Source: Candidatus Thorarchaeota archaeon
Lineage (GTDB): Archaea > Asgardarchaeota > Thorarchaeia > Thorarchaeales > Thorarchaeaceae
Length of the DNA stretch: 38,440 nt
Assembly: GCA_019057475.1 (NCBI GenBank)
Contig: DXJO01000049.1
Coordinates: 1 to 38,440, forward strand
Reading direction: 5' to 3'
Of the stretch, positions 25,729 to 35,656 are shown piece by piece. Both the position numbers and the translations under genes were made by a program. The notes under the pieces were generated by a model, which saw nothing but the letters and a program-made list of their open reading frames with translations, did not search any database and was not told where the DNA came from. Position 1 is the stretch's first letter. Each line of letters starts with the position of its first letter.

Positions 25729-26877
25729 TCACTCACCAAAGTGCCGAGCAATTTGAAGGTAGACATCAACAGATTGGAACATCTCATCAATGTGTATGTA
25801 TTCGTCAGGTTGGTGTGCCTGCTCGATGGAGCCGGGTCCACATATCACATTGATAACCTCTATCTTTGGTTGAAGTACCGAGCAGTCCGTGCCAAAAGTT
25901 GCCGCCGTGGGCACTGGCCGCCTTCCTGTAACCCGCTCAACTGCGTCGAGACTAACTCCGACTATTTCAGCATCACGGGGAGTTGAAACAGCAGGCTTGC
26001 CGTGAATGTACTCGATTTCGATGCATTCAGACAATCCAGATTTCGCAAGACGGGCATTCATCTCCGCCAGCACGGACTCCACGGTCTGCCCCTTGGACAG
26101 CCTCATGTCCAAGTGCGCTTCGCAGCGGTCGGGCACGACATTGATCTTCACTCCTCCTTTGATGATACCCACACTGATTGTTGGTTTGCCCAGCAGTTCA
26201 TCTGGTTCAAAGGTGTACGATTGGCCTGTAAGAACATCCAACGCTCTCGTGCATAATCGAATCGCGTTTTTCCCCTCGTTAGGTCTAGACCCGTGAGCGG
26301 CTTTGCCAGTCGCGATTACACGGGACCAGAACATTCCTTTCTCGCCGACAAGGACATTGAGGTTTGTGGGTTCCGCACAGACGCCAAACTTCACTCCCGC
26401 TAGCTTCCCGCTCTTAGCAACCTCTTCAGCACCTGAGCAGCCACTCTCTTCGTCAGATGTGGCCAGCATGAGAAGAGGAAGGTTGTGCTTCTCCTCGCTG
26501 TATAGAATCAGGGTTTCTGTCAAAGCTGTAACTGGCCCCTTCATGTCGCATGCCCCCCGCCCGTACATGCGTCCATCCACAAGCTCTGCACCGAATGGAT
26601 CGTAAGCCCAAGCATCTGGAGAACCAGCTGGTACAGTATCCATATGACCATGCAGGACTAGTGAACCCAATTCTTCGTCCACAGTAGAGAATATCAGATT
26701 TGGCCGATCACTTGGACCAACGGACTCGCAAGCGACACCGTGTGATTCCATATGGTCTCGAAGAACCTTGGCGACTTCAGCTTCTCTGCCCGGGGGGCTC
26801 TCAGAGTTCGTGGCTATGAGAGTTCTAAGAAGTGACAGCATCCGTGATTGGTTGGTCTTGATCAACTTGGCACCCAA
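25729..26877 (-). CDS. M20 metallopeptidase, ArgE/DapE family deacylase
   Basis: HGHMDTVP, GRGACDMKG, SDEE, AEPT, GKAAHGS, AHQPDEY. Confidence 0.92.
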   Translation of the reverse strand: MGAKLIKTNQSRMLSLLRTLIATNSESPPGREAEVAKVLRDHMESHGVACESVGPSDRPNLIFSTVDEELGSLVLHGHMDTVPAGSPDAWAYDPFGAELVDGRMYGRGACDMKGPVTALTETLILYSEEKHNLPLLMLATSDEESGCSGAEEVAKSGKLAGVKFGVCAEPTNLNVLVGEKGMFWSRVIATGKAAHGSRPNEGKNAIRLCTRALDVLTGQSYTFEPDELLGKPTISVGIIKGGVKINVVPDRCEAHLDMRLSKGQTVESVLAEMNARLAKSGLSECIEIEYIHGKPAVSTPRDAEIVGVSLDAVERVTGRRPVPTAATFGTDCSVLQPKIEVINVICGPGSIEQAHQPDEYIHIDEMFQSVDVYLQIARHFGE

Positions 26878-27007: not shown

Positions 27008-27199
27008 CTATACCCCTATAGCGATGTGCAAATCGTCACCCCACAGGATCCTGCGCTGTTTTCGAATGACGACCGGATATGTCCGTCCATATACATCTTC
27101 AACTGATACCTTGTACTCCCCTGAGAGGAACTTACGCACGGATTTCCGCAACTTGCGTGTGGGGATATCGCGAATGCGTATTGTGTAGGTTTCAGCCAT
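27008..27199 (-). CDS. Small basic hypothetical protein (63 aa)
   Basis: ATG 27199 after GGAG; MAETYTIRIRDIPTRKLRKSVRKFL...; TATATA upstream. Confidence 0.55.
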   Translation of the reverse strand: MAETYTIRIRDIPTRKLRKSVRKFLSGEYKVSVEDVYGRTYPVVIRKQRRILWGDDLHIAIGV

Positions 27200-27499
27200 G
27201 GTTCTTAGCTCCAACGGATGCTGGGTGGCGCGGCCAGCTTGTAACGGTGCGAAGCTTGTACAATGCTTCGTACGGTGGCATATATACGCAAATCGTTTCA
27301 ATTTCAACCGGGAGGGGCAAACAGAGTGGCCTTAGAAGTCATCTAGCTTGTGCGTTCTAACATCGCCTCTAGAACTGAGAGAACGTATTGTAACAGAGAA
27401 CACTGATGATGTCTTCGTCTTAACAAATGGCCAACATCCTGTATGGCAATTATGTATCGTATAGTAGATCCTTAGCGGCTATTTTTTGGTTGGACGTTC

Positions 27500-28975
27500 C
27501 TAGGGATTATACGCGAATGGGTGTCGAGCTGAGTCTTTCCTAGCTACAATCTCATTGACGTCTTGTCGTCGTTCTATCGCCCTTCGGATGGCGTGTCGAA
27601 CTGCACGGAAGTTGTTGATGTGCACACGCTTTGGATTATTGGCACTAGGATGCACGAATACATTGGCGGCTATCACCAAGTCAGGAATGAGCTCCTCAGG
27701 AATTATCATGTCTGTTATGGTGCGTGTCACAGCATCAGCCACTGCCTTCTGAGCTACTTCGTATACCAGCGCTTTGTGTTTTTCATCGACGATTGTAACT
27801 GTTGAAACGAAGACTGTTGTGGGTTCGAGGTCTTTGATGACATTGGAAGCATGAAAGCCCTCCGTCATTGTCCCGGCAGCTGCTAATGCTTCTTTGAGTG
27901 GTCCGTCCCGAAGACCCATGACAAGATCGACGTGTGCAACCTCCAGCCCTTCTCCAGCCAGCGCTTCTCCATGCAGCAATGTCAAGTCGTCGATGACTTC
28001 CGGAACTATGCCAATAGCCGTGGGATAGGACTCAGCAATCAAAGTCTTGTCGCCCATTTTGAACGTGACTGGTCCTCGCTTAATGAGTTGGAGGTCTTCC
28101 AAACACGTCCTGAGCTCGTCTATATCCTCGTACCTGAGAGCGTCACCTTCAATCAATGGAGCTCGTGCGGTTCCTACTGGAATCCCCATCATATTCAAGG
28201 CGGCCTTGACAGCAAGCCCGCCGCCCTTGTTTACCATTAGCCGGATTGTTTTCTGTAAGCTTCGTTGAATGATTAGGCCTTCCTTGAGGTCTCCGCTGGC
28301 AAGTGCTGCTTGCATTCGTATGTAGCGGTCTGGAAAGATATTGGCACTCAAGAGTATCGCACCATCACAGCCGGTAGCAAGGGCTGGAAGAGCAACCTCA
28401 TCATGTCCGATAACTACCTGAAAGGTTTCCGGCCGGCGAACGAGAATCGTCGTAAGATCAAGCAGGTTCGCACTTGAGTCCTTCATCCCGATGATTCCAT
28501 CTATCTCTCGGAGACCATCTACAAGCCACCAATCGATGTTAACTCCCGTCACTTGGGGGATATTGTAAAGGAATATCGGAATATCGCTTGCGTTGGCGAC
28601 CCGTTCAAAGTGCTCATAGATTTCCTTCGTGCTAGGTTTAAGGAAATACGGTGTGACCACTAGTGCGGCCGAAGCACCGAATTCAACAGCTCTCCTTGTG
28701 AGCTGAATGGCTTCCCTTGTGGATGCAGCTCCCGTGCCAGCCATTACAGGAACCCTGCCTTTTGCTGCGTCACAAGCAATCCTGAATGCATCGACCTTCT
28801 CATCGAAGCTCATGCTAGTGAATTCGCCTGTTGTTCCGCAAGGAACGATTCCCGTCGCACCACTCTTGATTACATGGTCAATCAATCCACGGTATTGCTC
28901 CTCGTTGACGCCATCTTTGCTGAATGGTGTTACCAAAGCGGGGAATACGCCCTTGAATGTGAAGTCATCTGTCAT
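27500..28975 (-). CDS. DapA/NAL-family Schiff-base aldolase fused to a formaldehyde-activating enzyme (Fae) domain, copy B
   Basis: PALVTPF, GTTGE, LYNIP, GMKDS; C-terminus GEALAGEGLEVAHVDLVMG..VTI..AQKAVADAV..VFVHPSA..N..AI.RAI..ARHPF matches Fae. Confidence 0.9.
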   Translation of the reverse strand: MTDDFTFKGVFPALVTPFSKDGVNEEQYRGLIDHVIKSGATGIVPCGTTGEFTSMSFDEKVDAFRIACDAAKGRVPVMAGTGAASTREAIQLTRRAVEFGASAALVVTPYFLKPSTKEIYEHFERVANASDIPIFLYNIPQVTGVNIDWWLVDGLREIDGIIGMKDSSANLLDLTTILVRRPETFQVVIGHDEVALPALATGCDGAILLSANIFPDRYIRMQAALASGDLKEGLIIQRSLQKTIRLMVNKGGGLAVKAALNMMGIPVGTARAPLIEGDALRYEDIDELRTCLEDLQLIKRGPVTFKMGDKTLIAESYPTAIGIVPEVIDDLTLLHGEALAGEGLEVAHVDLVMGLRDGPLKEALAAAGTMTEGFHASNVIKDLEPTTVFVSTVTIVDEKHKALVYEVAQKAVADAVTRTITDMIIPEELIPDLVIAANVFVHPSANNPKRVHINNFRAVRHAIRRAIERRQDVNEIVARKDSARHPFAYNP

Positions 28976-28981
28976 TTCTGA

Positions 28982-30379
28982 TCACTTCCATATCTGTCCC
29001 AAGGCAGCTGACACGACTCTCTCAGTCGCCGCTGTTACTTGCCGTCGGTTTCTGGAGTTTAGGTCAATGTCTAGTGCCATAATCACCACATTGTCAACAA
29101 TGACTTGATCTGGCACCTTGCCACTCTTGAGATGCGCCGCCACAGCCCTTGCGGCTCCTGACTGTACAGGCCCGTAGAAGAGGGTGGCCTGACGCATTGA
29201 CTTGATTTTCTTGATAGGCACCATGATGCTTGTCGGTCTCACAGGAAGATTAGGTTCCAATATCACCGTTAGTGCTTCGTGACCTACTCTTGGATTCATG
29301 AGCAGCTTAACGAATGCCGAACCCAGAGCGCTATGTTTCGGCCCGGTCATAATAGCCACTGACACGGTATCTTCAGAAGCCTTCCCGATTTCCGCATCTT
29401 GAAGGTAGTCCGGTCCAACTCCGAATGTCCCAAGAGCTCCTTGTATGTCGATGTCCTTTGTAGCCTTGGGATGAGTCAGGGCCTCTATCAGTCCAAGATT
29501 CTCCAGTTCAATTCGAATCTCAGCCCTTAGCTCATGAGTCAGAGTGCCGCCTGAATTCAAAGGCATTCTAGAATAGCCTGCGTTTATCCCCATTATTCTA
29601 AGCGCTGCCTTTACGGGAGGTGCGCCTCCCTTTCTTGTGACTATTCGTGCAAAGGTCTGCGCCGAGAGCTGAAGCTTCGCAGCATTCTTCATGTCACCCT
29701 TTTGCACCTTGTCCATGATGTCGAGCCAAATGTGAGGCATCACGTTTGCGGATGCCAAGATTGCCGCACTCGCTCCTGCCGCAACCGCAGAGAGGAAGCA
29801 CTCATCATGGCCAATCAGCACTGGCATCTTGCCATCTAGCTTCTGAATCAGCTCGAGAGTATGGCCTATGTGGCCACTACTATCCTTGATCCCAACGATA
29901 TTGTCAAGCTCGGCCAAGTCCTCTACAATGTTCGATTGCAGAACCCCGAGCGTACATTGTGGAATGTTATACATTATGATTGGCAGCCCGCCCGTTCCGG
30001 CAACAGCTTCATAGTGCTCGTAGTATCCCTTGTCTGTCGGGCGAAGATAGAATGGCGAAATGACTAGGGCTGCATCGCATCCTATGTCTGCAGCATACTT
30101 GGTCATCTTGACTGTTGCTTCTGTGCTAGTTTCTCCAGTCCCAGCCACCACGGGCACGCGACCATCCGCGAATTCCACACACATCTTGAAGAGTTTCTTC
30201 CGCTCCTCGGTCCGCATATAGACGAATTCTCCGGTCGTCCCAGCAGGCACAAGACCCGTCGCGCCCTTCTCAATCGTGTAATCGATTATGTCCTTGAATC
30301 CTTCTTCTATTATGTCGCCGTCCTTTGTGAAAGGGGTCACCAAGGCGGGCATAACACCCTTTGGTTCGAACTTAGCCAT
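28982..30379 (-). CDS. DapA/NAL-family Schiff-base aldolase fused to a partial Fae-like domain, copy A
   Basis: PALVTPF, GTTGE, MYNIP, GIKDS; C-terminus GPKHSALGSAF..GHEALTVILEPNLPVRPTSIMVP..IKSMRQATLFYGPVQ.G.ARAV matches the central part of Fae. Confidence 0.88.
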   Translation of the reverse strand: MAKFEPKGVMPALVTPFTKDGDIIEEGFKDIIDYTIEKGATGLVPAGTTGEFVYMRTEERKKLFKMCVEFADGRVPVVAGTGETSTEATVKMTKYAADIGCDAALVISPFYLRPTDKGYYEHYEAVAGTGGLPIIMYNIPQCTLGVLQSNIVEDLAELDNIVGIKDSSGHIGHTLELIQKLDGKMPVLIGHDECFLSAVAAGASAAILASANVMPHIWLDIMDKVQKGDMKNAAKLQLSAQTFARIVTRKGGAPPVKAALRIMGINAGYSRMPLNSGGTLTHELRAEIRIELENLGLIEALTHPKATKDIDIQGALGTFGVGPDYLQDAEIGKASEDTVSVAIMTGPKHSALGSAFVKLLMNPRVGHEALTVILEPNLPVRPTSIMVPIKKIKSMRQATLFYGPVQSGAARAVAAHLKSGKVPDQVIVDNVVIMALDIDLNSRNRRQVTAATERVVSAALGQIWK

Positions 30380-30417
30380 CAAGAACCACCTGACAGGCTT
30401 CGCGGGCTGTGCAGTTG

Positions 30418-30446: not shown

Positions 30447-32897
30447 TTAGTAGGATTTCGCCAAATTAGCGCGTCGTGCCGCGTACTGGAGCGAGTTGTT
30501 GAAGTACTGCCCTATCACCTTAGCTAGCGCCGGCCCCACAATATAGTTTATCTCGCCTGGGAGCATGGCATTCAAATTCGTCTTGGACGTCAATTTGCCG
30601 CTCCTCTTCAGATTCCCGATTTCTCTCTGGACAATGACCCTGGCCTCATCCCACGTCATGGCTTCAGCTTTGGGGCCAATCAGACCTCTCTTTATGTCAG
30701 AGATGGATCGCATTACGAACACAGCAAGACTGTCCAAGTCTTTGCTCTTAATCATCTGGCCGGAACCATGTTCAGAGCAAGCTCCTTCCTTGGGTATTGC
30801 ACCGCAATTTGTGCAGACAGAACGTCCTCGGCTTGTTCGTACATAGAATGCAAGAAGGTTGGCGAGCTTTGTATCGTCGTTTGCTGTCCAGTTCAAACCC
30901 GCAGTTCCAACTCGGGCTATTGCCCTGAATACGGTATGAGCCTTTGTGTAGACAAAAGATAGCGCATCGAGCGATGTCTTCTTGCGCTCAGCAAGCCTTT
31001 GCTGCTGTCGTTTTGCTTCAATGGCCAGTTCCTCTTTTGCCGCCATTCCAGACCGTTCCTGTTTCAAGAAGCGATGCATCACATCATATGCGATGGCGTA
31101 GTTATCAAACGTGAGCCCATCCCGGACTAGAGGGGCTTCCACTACACCCTCGAATACTGGACTTGGCGTTGATTCAAGATTCGAAGAAGCAGCATCCAAT
31201 GCCTTGCTTGCCAAACGTGCATGCATCCATGCGCTTAGTGTTGATGCATCGAGTTCAGGATGCACACATTTTAGCTCGTAGATGCGAATAGCTGTAAGGT
31301 CAATCAGGATCTCCTCGCGCAGGAATTGAAGCTCGGTTTCTGTATCTTCATAGATGCTCGTGAGTAGTGCCTTCATGCGGAGCAGGTCTTGCTTCGACCG
31401 CATGTAGGTTTCCACTATGCGTGTGAGATTCGTCAACAGACCTATAGTGAAATGCCAGACCAAGTCCAGCTTGATTGCTCTCGCGACTTCTTCATGCCTG
31501 AGTTGCTGACTTATATCAGAAACGGAGGCCATACCCAGTGAACTTAGAGCGCCATCATGAACTTGCTCACGCTGCTTGATGAGTAACTTGAGGTTCTCTG
31601 GAGAGGGAACACGCATCTTTGATTCGAGGGTTTCCAGTACTTGAACCTCAATGCCCATCAGGCTGCTGCGGTCCTTGGTCAGAAGATCCAATGATATCTT
31701 GTCTAACTCCGATGCTCTCCACCCCTTTGCTCTTAGCATACCCTTAACCTGCTTCTGGAGAGTGGTTTCAAGTTTCTCAAGACGTTTCAACGATCGCTCC
31801 ATTACCTCAAGGTCTTCCTTGTTGATGGAGGGGCCTTCGGCTTTGGCAGTAGGTGGCTCAGCCACACTCATCAAACCTTCTGCTAGCTGCAATACGTCTT
31901 TGACGCCCTTCACTCGCAGCGCGGCTTGAATATCACTGGAGTTAATCTGAAGTAGCTGTGACAGCATATTGTAGACGCTGTCAGGCTCAGCTTTGATCAT
32001 CTCACTCAAATGGTTCGCGACTACCTGACCCATCTTCGCCTCATACTCCTCAAGCGATGTGGGCGTTTCGAGATCGATTTCTACAGCTTCGATTAGCCTA
32101 AGCTTCAATTCATGGGCAGCTCGTATCGCCTGTGTTTCCAGAGGGCTCTGGCAGAATCGTTTCAGCACCGCATCAGAAATAGCGTTCCAAGCCGAGTCAG
32201 TAACGGATTGCGTGGGTCGTCCCTCTGCGTACTTCATAGTCCCGTAAATTTGACTCAGACCACGGGTTAGAACCGTGATTTCTGCAGTTTCTTCATCTCT
32301 GGGTCTGAGCAATTCATCCCTCAAAGAGAGAGCGGTTTCTTTCAGACCAGAAGCCTTTGTGTAAAGTTCTCGCCTCCATGCTGCGCTCCAGCCAGTTACT
32401 TCATTAATGAAATCAATATCATGATTTGGCGAATAGTCAGTTGGAATCTTTCCGAGATACTCCTTCACCAAGGATAGAGCCATTTCCTTCGTGCTTTGAT
32501 CAGTTGCGCTTTTGTCGCCTAGCTTATCTGCGGCCTTGATGAAGAACTCACTTACAAGGCGGGATACATCGACCTCCTCTTGGAATTTAACACCGAGCAG
32601 CTCCCGAATCTCTAACTCAAGCTGACGACGCTCCTTGCGTGTTGCTTCGTCCTTGAGCTCAATTGTAAGGTCTTGCGCCTCATCAAACCCTAGCAGCTTA
32701 ACACCTTGGTAATGGTACAACCAGAATGACGCAAAGAAGGATAAGATATCTTCCATGGGTCGAGAGCCTTCCGCAATTTCCGTTAAGAGCTGACGATCCC
32801 TATTACTTCGCATGTGGTTGACAAGCGCTTCCCTCAGGAGAATCTCCTTTCCAGCCTCGGACATCTGCCTGGTCTTGAGAATCCATGAACTTGCCAC
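30447..32897 (-). CDS. Large alpha-helical hypothetical protein with C-terminal Zn-ribbon-like motif
   Basis: 816 aa; coiled-coil segments; CTNC..CSEH; GTG start overlaps the upstream TAG (TAGTG). Confidence 0.8.
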   Translation of the reverse strand: MASSWILKTRQMSEAGKEILLREALVNHMRSNRDRQLLTEIAEGSRPMEDILSFFASFWLYHYQGVKLLGFDEAQDLTIELKDEATRKERRQLELEIRELLGVKFQEEVDVSRLVSEFFIKAADKLGDKSATDQSTKEMALSLVKEYLGKIPTDYSPNHDIDFINEVTGWSAAWRRELYTKASGLKETALSLRDELLRPRDEETAEITVLTRGLSQIYGTMKYAEGRPTQSVTDSAWNAISDAVLKRFCQSPLETQAIRAAHELKLRLIEAVEIDLETPTSLEEYEAKMGQVVANHLSEMIKAEPDSVYNMLSQLLQINSSDIQAALRVKGVKDVLQLAEGLMSVAEPPTAKAEGPSINKEDLEVMERSLKRLEKLETTLQKQVKGMLRAKGWRASELDKISLDLLTKDRSSLMGIEVQVLETLESKMRVPSPENLKLLIKQREQVHDGALSSLGMASVSDISQQLRHEEVARAIKLDLVWHFTIGLLTNLTRIVETYMRSKQDLLRMKALLTSIYEDTETELQFLREEILIDLTAIRIYELKCVHPELDASTLSAWMHARLASKALDAASSNLESTPSPVFEGVVEAPLVRDGLTFDNYAIAYDVMHRFLKQERSGMAAKEELAIEAKRQQQRLAERKKTSLDALSFVYTKAHTVFRAIARVGTAGLNWTANDDTKLANLLAFYVRTSRGRSVCTNCGAIPKEGACSEHGSGQMIKSKDLDSLAVFVMRSISDIKRGLIGPKAEAMTWDEARVIVQREIGNLKRSGKLTSKTNLNAMLPGEINYIVGPALAKVIGQYFNNSLQYAARRANLAKSY

Positions 32898-35515
32898 TAG
32901 ACTGCACCTCCCATCTTGCTTCCACCGATTCTGATTGTGAGTTCGCTTCCTCTTTGTTCATAGGTTACCACATAGATGAAGTCAGGAGAATCAGGATTTC
33001 TTAGATACGCTCTTGTTGGCCGCGGAAGTAGTCTACTTAATCCTCTAATGACCGAATCCATCAGATACTCGAGAAACTCGTCACCAATGCTGAGAGAGAT
33101 TGTTTCGGTGGCAGTCGATCCCTCAGATTGCAGTTGTTTCAACCTTTCAAGGAAAATGGCTTCCATCTTCTCTTGACTCTCATTCATCATTGAGAGTTCC
33201 TTTGTCATGGTGTCGCGTAGCTCAGTATAGAGTAGTGTTTCTTGTGACATCTCGGGCGTGGGTGGAATTGGATGTTCTGAAAGACCGGGTGAGTACTCAG
33301 CATCAATGTCAGCAATGCGCAAATTCATGCTTCGAGGAGGATTGGGCTTGTCTGGGATAGTGATGCCAGTGCTATCAAGAGATGCTTGAGCAAGTCTTCG
33401 CTTCTCTCGGATCGATTCATACTCGGCCGTTTCCTCGTTGAATTGGGATTGTGTCTGCTGAAGCAGAGTATCCCTCGTTTCGTTGTGAGCCCTTATCTTG
33501 GCATTCTCAGCTTCTATTACTTGGCGTTCTTGTTCCCATTCCTGAACCAGAATCTGATACTCCTGTTCTCGCACATTGGCCTTGCTGGCAATTCGCTCAA
33601 CTGTTGACCGCGCAGTTCCCCTGCGTCCTGCCTTATCATGAATAAACTGTAGGAAATCCATCAGCTTAGTGGAGAGGCTATCATCCGTTCCTTGAACGCG
33701 AAAATCCTCAACCCAGAGCCGGGCTTCGGTTTTCCACATCTCGGGTTTCTCACTCTGCTTGTCTATTATCGACAACAGCGCTTCCGTCAGGTCAACGCCT
33801 TCATTCAGGACTGCATCAATAGCCTCCGAAATTAATGCCTTGCTCAAGAGGTGGTCCGCCACATCGGGCACCACATCTGCTACAAGGGTCTCGAAGTCGG
33901 AGAGTAAATTCTGAAGTGCTATGCCGGTTTCTGAGAGTGTAGCACTGCCCTCACTGACTCCAGCTGAGTGGTTGTTCTCGATTTCAGAGCGGACAACCTG
34001 AGCCACGTCGCCGAATCTTATCAAGGCCCATGCATCAATCTTCTCAAAGGATTCTTGGATATCACTGACAATCACGCTTATCAACTCGGCTGGATGATCT
34101 TGCTTGGAGCCTTCGAACGCCTTCTTGCCAATGACCGCATTCAGTTGACTATACAAATCATCGAAGAACTTGTGGAATAGCATGGTTTCAGTGGGACCCA
34201 TCTCTTGATTTGACATCTCGTCCCGGAAATCCCGCATAGTTTCGAATATCGCTCTTCTGGTTGCCCCCACAATCAGGTATTGCTGCAAATCCAGCACGAA
34301 GTACTGAGCCACTTTCTTGGCATAAACGACGAAATACCTCATGGTGCTCTTCAGCTGCCACGCCCTCAGCTCATCGTTAACGGGGAACTCACGCTCAACG
34401 GATTCCATCATATAGCTCACAAGGTTTTTCGCGAGTTCAGTCTTGAATCCATCAAACCGCGTCTTGTCAGATTCTATCTCGGAGTTGAGCTTGGACTTGT
34501 GTTCTGAGAGCGACAGTGTGAGTCCAGAACTAACGTGCTGCTCAATAACCACTTCAAATGAATCAACAGTTTCAGTTAGGAGCGTAGCGAATTCGTTTGT
34601 CCTCTTCTTGAGTGAATCGAGCTCGCGGATTTCCGCTCGCTCACTCCCGAGAAACTGAACAAGGGCAGCAATCGATGCGCGAACGATGTCTACCTCTTCT
34701 ATACCGTAGGCGTATGTGTTTAGTTCGCTTAGAATTGCTCTGCCCGTGTTAGCAACACTTGATGATATCGTTTCAATAGCCAAGGGCGTGAGGATTCTTT
34801 GTTTGAAGTAGTGGATTTTCTCTATCTCGCTCGATTTAGGAGAATCAAACCTAAGGTCGGTGCGCTCCACTATTGTTATCCCGGGAGGCAACGTAGTGAA
34901 GTCGTCGCGGCACTGTAATTTGATAGCGACTTCCTCGTCGATGTTTTCCGATTTAAGCTGAATCGAGTCCCACGAACCCTTGAACTGACGGTCCATCAAT
35001 TCTACAAAGACAACGCGGTTCAGGCGATCCACGAACTTGCTAAGTATGGCCATCCCATCGGTTTCGTAGTTCAAGCTGCTATTAACAACTGCAGCCTCCA
35101 CGTCAGCAATCTTCTTTGATAATCCCTGCATATGATTGTCAATCTTGAACGGATCTACAATGCCCTCTTCCCAGCTCAGCACACACACATGAGAACTAAC
35201 CTCATTTGACAAAGCACCAGCGATGGAGAGCTGTTCTGGCAGAACTTCGGAACCTTGAGCGCGGTCTAGGTTCCATTCCAATGAGAGTATCTCAAGACCC
35301 TCTGTTTTTCTTAGAGCATCCCTAATCGCGAAGACTAGAGACGATATATTCATGGCAACAGCTTCGGAATTCTGTTCCATCATGCTGCCAGAGCCTATTG
35401 CACTACCAAGGGGGTTCCCACGACTTGTGGAAACTCCAAGTACTGAGGCCGAAGCCATTCTGATTGCCTCAATGGTGCTTCGAGCTTGCGCCTTTTTTCT
35501 GGATAGTCCGCTCAT
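32897..35515 (-). CDS. Large acidic alpha-helical / coiled-coil hypothetical protein
   Basis: ~872 aa open frame; long coiled coil (EQEYQILVQEWEQERQVIEAENAKIRAHNE..); no catalytic motif recognised. Confidence 0.8.
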   Translation of the reverse strand: MSGLSRKKAQARSTIEAIRMASASVLGVSTSRGNPLGSAIGSGSMMEQNSEAVAMNISSLVFAIRDALRKTEGLEILSLEWNLDRAQGSEVLPEQLSIAGALSNEVSSHVCVLSWEEGIVDPFKIDNHMQGLSKKIADVEAAVVNSSLNYETDGMAILSKFVDRLNRVVFVELMDRQFKGSWDSIQLKSENIDEEVAIKLQCRDDFTTLPPGITIVERTDLRFDSPKSSEIEKIHYFKQRILTPLAIETISSSVANTGRAILSELNTYAYGIEEVDIVRASIAALVQFLGSERAEIRELDSLKKRTNEFATLLTETVDSFEVVIEQHVSSGLTLSLSEHKSKLNSEIESDKTRFDGFKTELAKNLVSYMMESVEREFPVNDELRAWQLKSTMRYFVVYAKKVAQYFVLDLQQYLIVGATRRAIFETMRDFRDEMSNQEMGPTETMLFHKFFDDLYSQLNAVIGKKAFEGSKQDHPAELISVIVSDIQESFEKIDAWALIRFGDVAQVVRSEIENNHSAGVSEGSATLSETGIALQNLLSDFETLVADVVPDVADHLLSKALISEAIDAVLNEGVDLTEALLSIIDKQSEKPEMWKTEARLWVEDFRVQGTDDSLSTKLMDFLQFIHDKAGRRGTARSTVERIASKANVREQEYQILVQEWEQERQVIEAENAKIRAHNETRDTLLQQTQSQFNEETAEYESIREKRRLAQASLDSTGITIPDKPNPPRSMNLRIADIDAEYSPGLSEHPIPPTPEMSQETLLYTELRDTMTKELSMMNESQEKMEAIFLERLKQLQSEGSTATETISLSIGDEFLEYLMDSVIRGLSRLLPRPTRAYLRNPDSPDFIYVVTYEQRGSELTIRIGGSKMGGAV

Positions 35516-35656
35516 CAATCGGTCCCCTGAACGAATTTCATAATTCGTAGATTGTCAGAAACTATGAACAGGGCTGCCCGATGCTGTTCTGGTTTCTGGT
35601 AAGGGACTTTCGTGTGGGTGTCTTTTGAATCTAGCTCGATTGTACATTGAAGGGAA

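Follow-up and report, generated by a model that had tools for sequence, protein, structure and literature searches.

A 38,440-nucleotide stretch of DNA from a Candidatus Thorarchaeota archaeon, analyzed here as a whole and referred to as the window (contig C31 of the 3.34-Mb Thorarchaeota genome G000, which is 96% complete), carries two adjacent genes, A and B, whose products most likely work only together, as a two-subunit one-carbon enzyme. Gene A (28982–30382, 466 aa) and gene B (27500–28975, 491 aa) are both intact open reading frames on the minus strand, as are all features of the two genes given below by their window positions. According to Pfam and NCBIfam, both encode an N-terminal aldolase of the DHDPS/NAL type that is followed by a C-terminal Fae domain (Pfam DHDPS at residues 7–277 and Fae at residues 338–460 in A; 7–278 and 336–487 in B). 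The genes are separated by 6 nt (28976–28981; TGA tcagaa ATG from the stop of A to the start of B), and translational coupling across this spacer is probable. With computational support from several sides, we consider it fairly probable that A and B together form one obligate hetero-oligomeric enzyme with a composite Fae site. The domain make-up of the two proteins, their complementary conservation, the linkage of the genes, and their single origin are shown by the analysis; the binding of A to B, the shared site, and the chemistry are what we infer.

The Fae domains of the two proteins are degenerate in different parts. Residues 336–487 of B match positions 2–158 of the Pfam Fae profile (E 3.7e-33, 115.2 bits), and residues 338–460 of A match only positions 11–133 (E 6.7e-24, 85.1 bits; the cut-off is 27 bits). 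With the NCBIfam Fae equivalog domain TIGR03126, which has a cut-off of 118.05, B scored 125.5 and is thus over the cut-off, and A scored 79.3 and is under it. The Fae fold is nevertheless predicted for both domains. In Foldseek comparisons of AlphaFold2 models with the Fae structures 1Y5Y and 1Y60, the template modeling (TM) score was 0.83–0.84 for the Fae domain of A (28985–29371) and 0.78–0.79 for that of B, and the predicted local distance difference test (pLDDT) values of the monomer models were 87 and 81, respectively. The low-confidence parts of these models were the EPNL loop in A and the C-terminal arm in B, which is expected if these elements order against a partner.

The active site of Fae is said to lie between neighboring subunits, where His22 is the acid catalyst, and a C-terminal arm reportedly orders on binding. 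As Fae sites are thus located between subunits, each of two duplicates could keep one face of the site. We compared the motifs of A and B with those of Fae from Methylobacterium extorquens (1Y5Y) in an alignment, with the motif coordinates checked by translation. B contains the motif HGEALAGEGLEVAHVDL (27923–27973) and a tail of the form ...SARHPFAYNP; its center is shortened, and EVAQ is found in place of GPAQ. His348 of B (codon 27932–27934) aligns with His22 and presumably takes the position of this acid catalyst. A contains the central segment GHEALTVILEPNLPVRP (29234–29284), which lies inside the predicted interface with B, as well as YGPVQ. At the position of EVAHIDL, A has TVSVAIM, with Ser341 in place of the catalytic His, and its chain stops ~22 residues short. 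The C-terminal arm, which in Fae ends in ...RHP, is present in B as QDVNEIVARKDSARHPFAYNP (27503–27565) and contributes domain residues 150–163 to the predicted interface; it is deleted in A and also in the oA copies, where oA and oB denote the A-type and B-type copies of gene pairs from two other Asgard families.

This division of motifs is no chance pattern but a property of both clades, as evident from alignments of 117 A-type and 107 B-type sequences from ortholog clusters. The residue equivalent to His22 is a His in 99% of clade B and in 0% of clade A. The B-type consensus keeps the His motif, in which H27 and D29 (numbered from the start of the domain, as E49 to P63 below) are invariant, together with VFVHP, the helix NN..A.R.A.R.A.E, and the ARHPF arm; it lacks 4–6 residues in the LEPNL loop as well as the GP of GPAQ, and B itself shows a 4-residue deletion and YEVAQ. 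The A-type consensus keeps the central G(H)..L..I.PNL..KP loop with the invariant residues E49, L51, I54, L55, E56, P57, N58, L59, and P63, as well as MRQAS and YGPVQ, and it has lost His, Asp, and the entire arm. An earlier note on this DNA had described B as having kept the His motif and the HPF tail, with an eroded and shortened center and GPAQ changed to EVAQ, and A as having kept the central segment and GPVQ, with the His motif and the HPF tail gone. Both descriptions are borne out by the alignment with M. extorquens Fae and by the two sets of homologs.

For a quantitative view of this complementarity, we considered 55 columns that are conserved in canonical Fae and in single-copy aldolase–Fae fusions alike. 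Only A kept 14 of these columns, only B kept 25, both kept 9, and neither kept 7, so that 48 of the 55 ancestral columns are still represented in A, in B, or in both (34 in B and 23 in A). Retention in A and retention in B were negatively associated (odds ratio 0.18, Fisher p 0.005), with the test being descriptive because columns are not independent.

Modeling of the Fae domains of A and B as a dimer, using custom alignments of both, gave a confident complex. The ipSAE was 0.82 (0.82, 0.86, and 0.82 in the individual runs), compared to 0.01 for the best of three controls; as the Fae homopentamer has already been solved, this score may partly reflect likeness to the homopentamer. Solved complexes attain this ipSAE mark in 58 of 80 cases, mismatched pairs in 2 of 110. 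At least 73% of the contacts were shared between the runs, and the pLDDT of the partner was at least 83. Counted from the start of each domain, the predicted interface comprises residues 29–64, which include the retained loop 47–64, and 92–112 on the A side, and residues 9–18 (HGEAL), His27, Asp29, 37–56, 67–73, 115, 117, and the arm 140–163 on the B side. More telling than the score is the orientation: of the two possible neighbor orientations, the model picks the one in which the retained face of B is set against the retained face of A. The His and the arm of B are thereby placed against the loop of A, in line with the A/B complex that the earlier note had anticipated.

The faces that are not used in the modeled contact are less conserved than the used ones. 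In clade A, the unused face has an entropy of 1.78 bits, with 16 of its 40 columns deleted, compared to 1.09 bits for the used face and 1.15 bits for the rest of the domain; in clade B, the corresponding values are 1.11, 0.66, and 0.76 bits. By this measure, constraint seems to act on one kind of Fae interface only. The relaxation of the second interface speaks for Fae heterodimers and not for a pentameric ring, and as a strictly alternating arrangement of A and B cannot close a five-membered ring, a heterodimer would also remove this parity problem. On the basis of the model, the Fae domains of A and B probably pair as heterodimers and not as a homopentamer. The earlier note had proposed that each paralog retained one face of the interface site, and this is supported inasmuch as the retained sets meet in the model and the reciprocal faces are relaxed or deleted, although the split is not fully clean.

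It was in principle possible that A and B form a heteromer that has no shared site. B alone would then carry the remaining Fae-type chemistry, and the Fae domain of A would be a non-catalytic scaffold whose loop merely holds B. The position of B over and of A under the NCBIfam cut-off, the higher number of ancestral columns kept by B (34/55 vs 23/55), and the absence of His, Asp, VFVHP, and the arm from A would agree with such a division of labor. However, B retains neither the LEPNL loop nor the GP of GPAQ, which are invariant in canonical Fae and in single-copy fusions, and A has exactly these elements as invariant residues. As the complex model also places the loop of A beside the His and the arm of B, we regard a scaffold function of A as unlikely.

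To place the pair among its relatives, we used database searches, a Fae profile scan of 201 Asgard genomes, and phylogeny. The database searches gave more than 100 cluster representatives of each type, all with the DHDPS plus Fae architecture and nearly all from Thorarchaeota. In the scan, the Thorarchaeota family showed exactly two weak Fae matches per genome, two other Asgard families carried tandem pairs, and many Asgard families had Fae-Hps together with a second, ~500-aa open reading frame whose Fae domain is intact. At the loci examined, these ~500-aa frames are single-copy DHDPS–Fae fusions in which every Fae motif is intact. In the pairs of the two other Asgard families, A lies upstream and B downstream, with the motifs split as in Thorarchaeota. 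In a maximum-likelihood tree, A and oA formed one clade (support 99), B and oB formed another (support 98), and the intact single-copy fusions were positioned between them; the stems leading to Thorarchaeota A and B were long, with 0.7 and 0.91 changes per site, respectively. The tree points to one duplication that was followed by complementary loss, and, judging from these sequences, the single-copy fusion with an intact Fae domain is the ancestral form. A profile-free exhaustive search of 1.84 billion representatives yielded only about a dozen full-length DHDPS–Fae clusters (50% identity). As full-text literature searches returned no description of a DHDPS–Fae fusion, the family appears to be uncharacterized.

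The linkage of the two genes is equally consistent. Among 61 Thorarchaeota genomes, 48 contain a full-length A, and in 47 of these B follows directly downstream on the same strand. In four further genomes the A/B junction is the same as in the 47, with A being cut by a contig end. Thorarchaeota genomes that seemingly have one copy or none have the genes truncated at contig ends, for which reason apparent singletons were rejected, and no true singleton with A- or B-type erosion was found among the 61 genomes. This agrees with the earlier note, which had expected the two copies to occur together and not commonly as eroded singletons. Contigs from RNA libraries of relatives (90–95% identity; three libraries from two studies) cover parts of A and B, and two of them span the A/B junction. 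These contigs are uninformative on level, strand, or a single transcript; they are compatible with co-transcription of A and B, which is a weak hint and no proof.

One could also view A and B as independent homo-oligomeric enzymes that have different functions and are merely adjacent. Both aldolases have the equivalents of Lys161, Tyr133, and Thr44, and substrate divergence is common among paralogous aldolases, which would fit two separate enzymes. However, in each copy one of the two faces needed for a Fae homo-oligomer is gone or relaxed, and the complementary retention, the invariant A-then-B linkage with the 6-nt spacer, and the confident A/B interface all argue against independence, which we therefore consider very improbable.

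The current database label of both genes is DapA (4-hydroxy-tetrahydrodipicolinate synthase, TIGR00674). Both are just over the dapA cut-off, from which the label arises, their best PDB matches are true DHDPS enzymes (e.g., M. jannaschii 2YXG, E 7e-50), and A, B, and the single-copy fusions all have the equivalents of the Schiff-base Lys161, Tyr133, and Thr44, features which they share with DapA. In the aldolase domain of A (29552–30364), the equivalents of Lys161, Tyr133, Thr44/45, and Tyr107 are present and Arg138 is replaced by Cys; in that of B (28142–28957), Lys161, Tyr133, and Thr44/45 are present, Tyr107 is replaced by Phe111, and Arg138 is replaced by Val. In E. coli DHDPS, Arg138 binds aspartate semialdehyde. 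Its equivalent is Cys, Val, or Leu in 241 of 241 family sequences, and DapB (DapB_C), archaeal Asd, and homoserine dehydrogenase (Hom) were not found in G000. In contrast to A and B, DapA has Arg138, stands in an Asd/DapB pathway context, and has no Fae domain. With Arg138 absent throughout the family, and no DapB and no archaeal Asd in G000, we rejected a true DapA, and the DapA label is very probably wrong for A and B. The only other DHDPS paralog in the genome, on contig C3, was rejected as DapA as well because it is KdgD-like and lies next to a transporter and an amidohydrolase.

A further position of the aldolase domains is asymmetric between the two copies. At the Tyr107 equivalent, all 12 single-copy fusions have Tyr, as do 105 of the 117 A-type sequences, and 106 of the 107 B-type sequences have Phe. 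In E. coli DHDPS, Tyr107 crosses the tight-dimer interface into the active site of the partner. The asymmetry would therefore make sense in an A:B dimer in which A completes the site of B.

Classic Fae uses tetrahydromethanopterin (H4MPT) as co-substrate. Beta-RFAP synthase catalyzes the committed step of methanopterin synthesis. This enzyme as well as Mtd and Ftr were not found in G000, in which Mch and FolD are present, and a Fae profile search of this genome gave no match beyond A and B and no Fae-Hps. RFAP synthase matches were found in 2 of 43 Thorarchaeota genomes, one of them marginal. Two other Asgard families, both of which carry the intact single-copy fusion, have it in 39 of 40 and 18 of 19 of their genomes. 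Considering these gene contents, the carrier in Thorarchaeota may be other than H4MPT, and the long Thorarchaeota stems may reflect adaptation to another pterin. The earlier note had placed an H4MPT site between the subunits; the model sets the retained faces of A and B against each other, but H4MPT as the carrier is doubtful. As a broader observation, Thorarchaeota genomes are mostly devoid of Fae-Hps, beta-RFAP synthase, Mtd, Ftr, DapB, and Hom, and most of them also of archaeal Asd, and they have kept Mch, FolD, PanB, and ThrC.

These absences would also suit a more radical explanation, namely that Fae chemistry was lost together with methanopterin and that the Fae domains now serve as a hetero-dimerization or regulatory module for two aldolases, or bind another ligand. 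Besides the missing beta-RFAP synthase, Mtd, and Ftr and the rarity of RFAP synthase in Thorarchaeota relative to the two other families, the lack of Fae-Hps in the Thorarchaeota genomes searched and the long stem branches of both clades are in agreement with such a loss. On the other hand, His, Asp, ARHPF, and EPNL are invariant or nearly so in more than 100 clusters, which exceeds the need of a mere contact surface. Moreover, genome G007 has a pair with the same split as in Thorarchaeota together with RFAP synthase and Fae-Hps, and the split itself is thus independent of methanopterin loss. Finally, the presence of Mch and FolD in G000 implies that some pterin one-carbon carrier exists. Taking both sides together, we judge a complete loss of Fae chemistry to be improbable.

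For the favored obligate heteromer with a composite site, we propose the following scenario. The ancestor would have been a single-copy class I aldolase of the pyruvate type, with a Schiff-base Lys, fused to an intact Fae domain. After tandem duplication of this fusion, the face that comprises the acid-catalyst His, the adjacent Asp (Asp350), VFVHP, and the C-terminal arm would have been retained in B, and the one that comprises the LEPNL...P loop and YGPVQ in A. A complete Fae-type pocket would be rebuilt only by the His/arm face of B together with the loop face of A, and the opposite contact would have decayed. By analogy with Fae-Hps, the aldolase would make or cleave a formaldehyde-derived 4-hydroxy-2-oxo acid, with formaldehyde as the aldehyde; pyruvate and formaldehyde, for example, would give 4-hydroxy-2-oxobutanoate. 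Transfer of the one-carbon unit to a pterin carrier, or from it, would take place at the composite Fae site.

4-Hydroxy-2-oxobutanoate is the keto-acid of homoserine. As a more specific and rather speculative possibility, the pair could be a hydroxymethyl-transferring aldolase that interconverts pyruvate plus a pterin-bound one-carbon unit and 4-hydroxy-2-oxobutanoate, with a single composite Fae site and a non-methanopterin carrier, and that replaces the aspartate-semialdehyde/homoserine-dehydrogenase route in Thorarchaeota. Hom matches were found in 2 of 43 Thorarchaeota genomes and in none of the genomes searched from the families f12, f13, f21, and f27, and ThrC was found in all 41 Thorarchaeota genomes searched. 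The absence of Hom and Asd in combination with the presence of ThrC fits such a role, whereas ThrB, which is not over its cut-off in G000, and the co-occurrence of Hom and the aldolase–Fae fusion in some Asgard families speak otherwise. With this mixed evidence, we can only hypothesize that the pair supplies a homoserine precursor. A replacement of ketopantoate hydroxymethyltransferase (PanB) by the pair was rejected, as PanB is present in G000 and in 37 of 43 Thorarchaeota genomes. As a separate observation, in more than 20 Thorarchaeota genomes the contig with the pair also encodes, ~25–30 kb away, a ThrC-like paralog of ~390 aa (137–171 bits, near the TIGR00260 cut-off), which is a conserved synteny and not an adjacency.

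Among known systems, Fae of M. extorquens (1Y5Y/1Y60; PF08714, TIGR03126) has the same fold, and A and B jointly keep nearly all of its conserved motifs. However, this enzyme is a homopentamer of complete identical subunits, whereas in A and B the motifs are divided over two paralogous, aldolase-fused chains, and the Thorarchaeota host without apparent methanopterin synthesis is set apart from classic Fae with H4MPT. Fae-Hps (NF009833) resembles A and B in that it, too, joins Fae to an enzyme of the aldolase type by which free formaldehyde is produced or consumed, and it sets an example of an aldol reaction being coupled to a pterin carrier; it coexists with the single-copy DHDPS–Fae fusion in many Asgard genomes. 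In Fae-Hps, a single gene encodes an intact N-terminal Fae domain and an Hps barrel of the OMP-decarboxylase type, whereas A and B have a C-terminal Fae domain and a Schiff-base aldolase of the DHDPS/NAL type. Given these differences in aldolase family and domain order, we consider the pair an analog and not a member of the Fae-Hps type. Paralogous heteromers with complementary degeneration are known from trypanosomatid deoxyhypusine synthase, from AdoMetDC/prozyme, and from the crenarchaeal alpha2-beta2 tRNA splicing endonuclease. As proposed for A and B, a homo-oligomer with an interface site was duplicated in these cases and each copy took one role; the families are unrelated to A and B, and none of them involves Fae or one-carbon carriers.

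Several points weigh against the obligate heteromer with a split site. The faces were defined from the model of A and B themselves and not from the methylene-H4MPT site of 1Y60, and such models may favor conserved surfaces. The complex modeling was limited to A/B and has no bearing on a preference for the heteromer over A/A or B/B. The split is also imperfect, in that some columns were kept in both copies and others in neither, as counted above, and the Gln88 equivalent is present in both copies in Thorarchaeota. The clean subfunctionalization of the earlier note therefore has to be softened to an incomplete complementarity. Furthermore, the long stems of Thorarchaeota A and B would also fit a change of function, and with methanopterin synthesis and Mtd/Ftr undetected in G000, classic Fae chemistry with H4MPT is doubtful. 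Finally, the proposed aldol substrate is without direct support, and ThrB was not over the cut-off in G000 although ThrC is present.

An examination of the neighbors of A and B in the window found no functional link. Two large open reading frames of 816 and 873 aa (30447–35518, minus strand) lie directly upstream of A on the same strand. Of these two frames, the second starts at the last base of the first, and a transcript shared with A and B is possible; a Pfam scan of the 816-aa frame gave no match. Downstream of B, at a distance of ~600 bp, an M20 peptidase (ArgE/DapE-like; 25729–26877, minus strand) is encoded. Homologs of this peptidase are found near the single-copy fusion in loci L007 and L016, which could be a coincidence. 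The 99-aa open reading frame between B and the peptidase (27008–27307, minus strand) has no family match and is maybe not a real gene.

Two other proteins were noted beside fusions or pairs elsewhere. A 435-aa protein without a Pfam or NCBIfam match is encoded directly upstream of the single-copy aldolase–Fae gene in six Asgard loci (e.g., L006:752–2059, plus strand), and a 64%-identical homolog is encoded in the genome of the window itself (G000:C46:75149–76426; L034). In other Asgard families, seven loci (L015:840–1787 and L007:1304–2251, both plus strand, and five more) have a 315-aa protein without a Pfam match adjoining the fusion or the pair. Its language-model look-alikes are U32-peptidase-like clusters (score 0.98), and a search of G000 with this query gave no match.

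The reading of A and B as a heteromer with a split Fae site has good computational support, with the assumption of H4MPT and the idea of a clean split requiring qualification. Hundreds of Asgard proteins are labeled DapA without having its specificity residue and pathway, and metabolic reconstructions of Thorarchaeota would err if they took these genes for lysine-synthesis genes or for an ordinary Fae. The gene absences described above raise the questions of where homoserine and threonine come from in Thorarchaeota and which one-carbon carrier these organisms use, and the aldolase–Fae fusion may be a natural enzyme that links 2-oxo acids to one-carbon carriers. As the intact single-copy ancestor, the intermediate pairs, and the strongly diverged pairs of Thorarchaeota are all extant, the family offers a well-documented and testable case of how a homo-oligomer with an interface site became an obligate heteromer by complementary loss.

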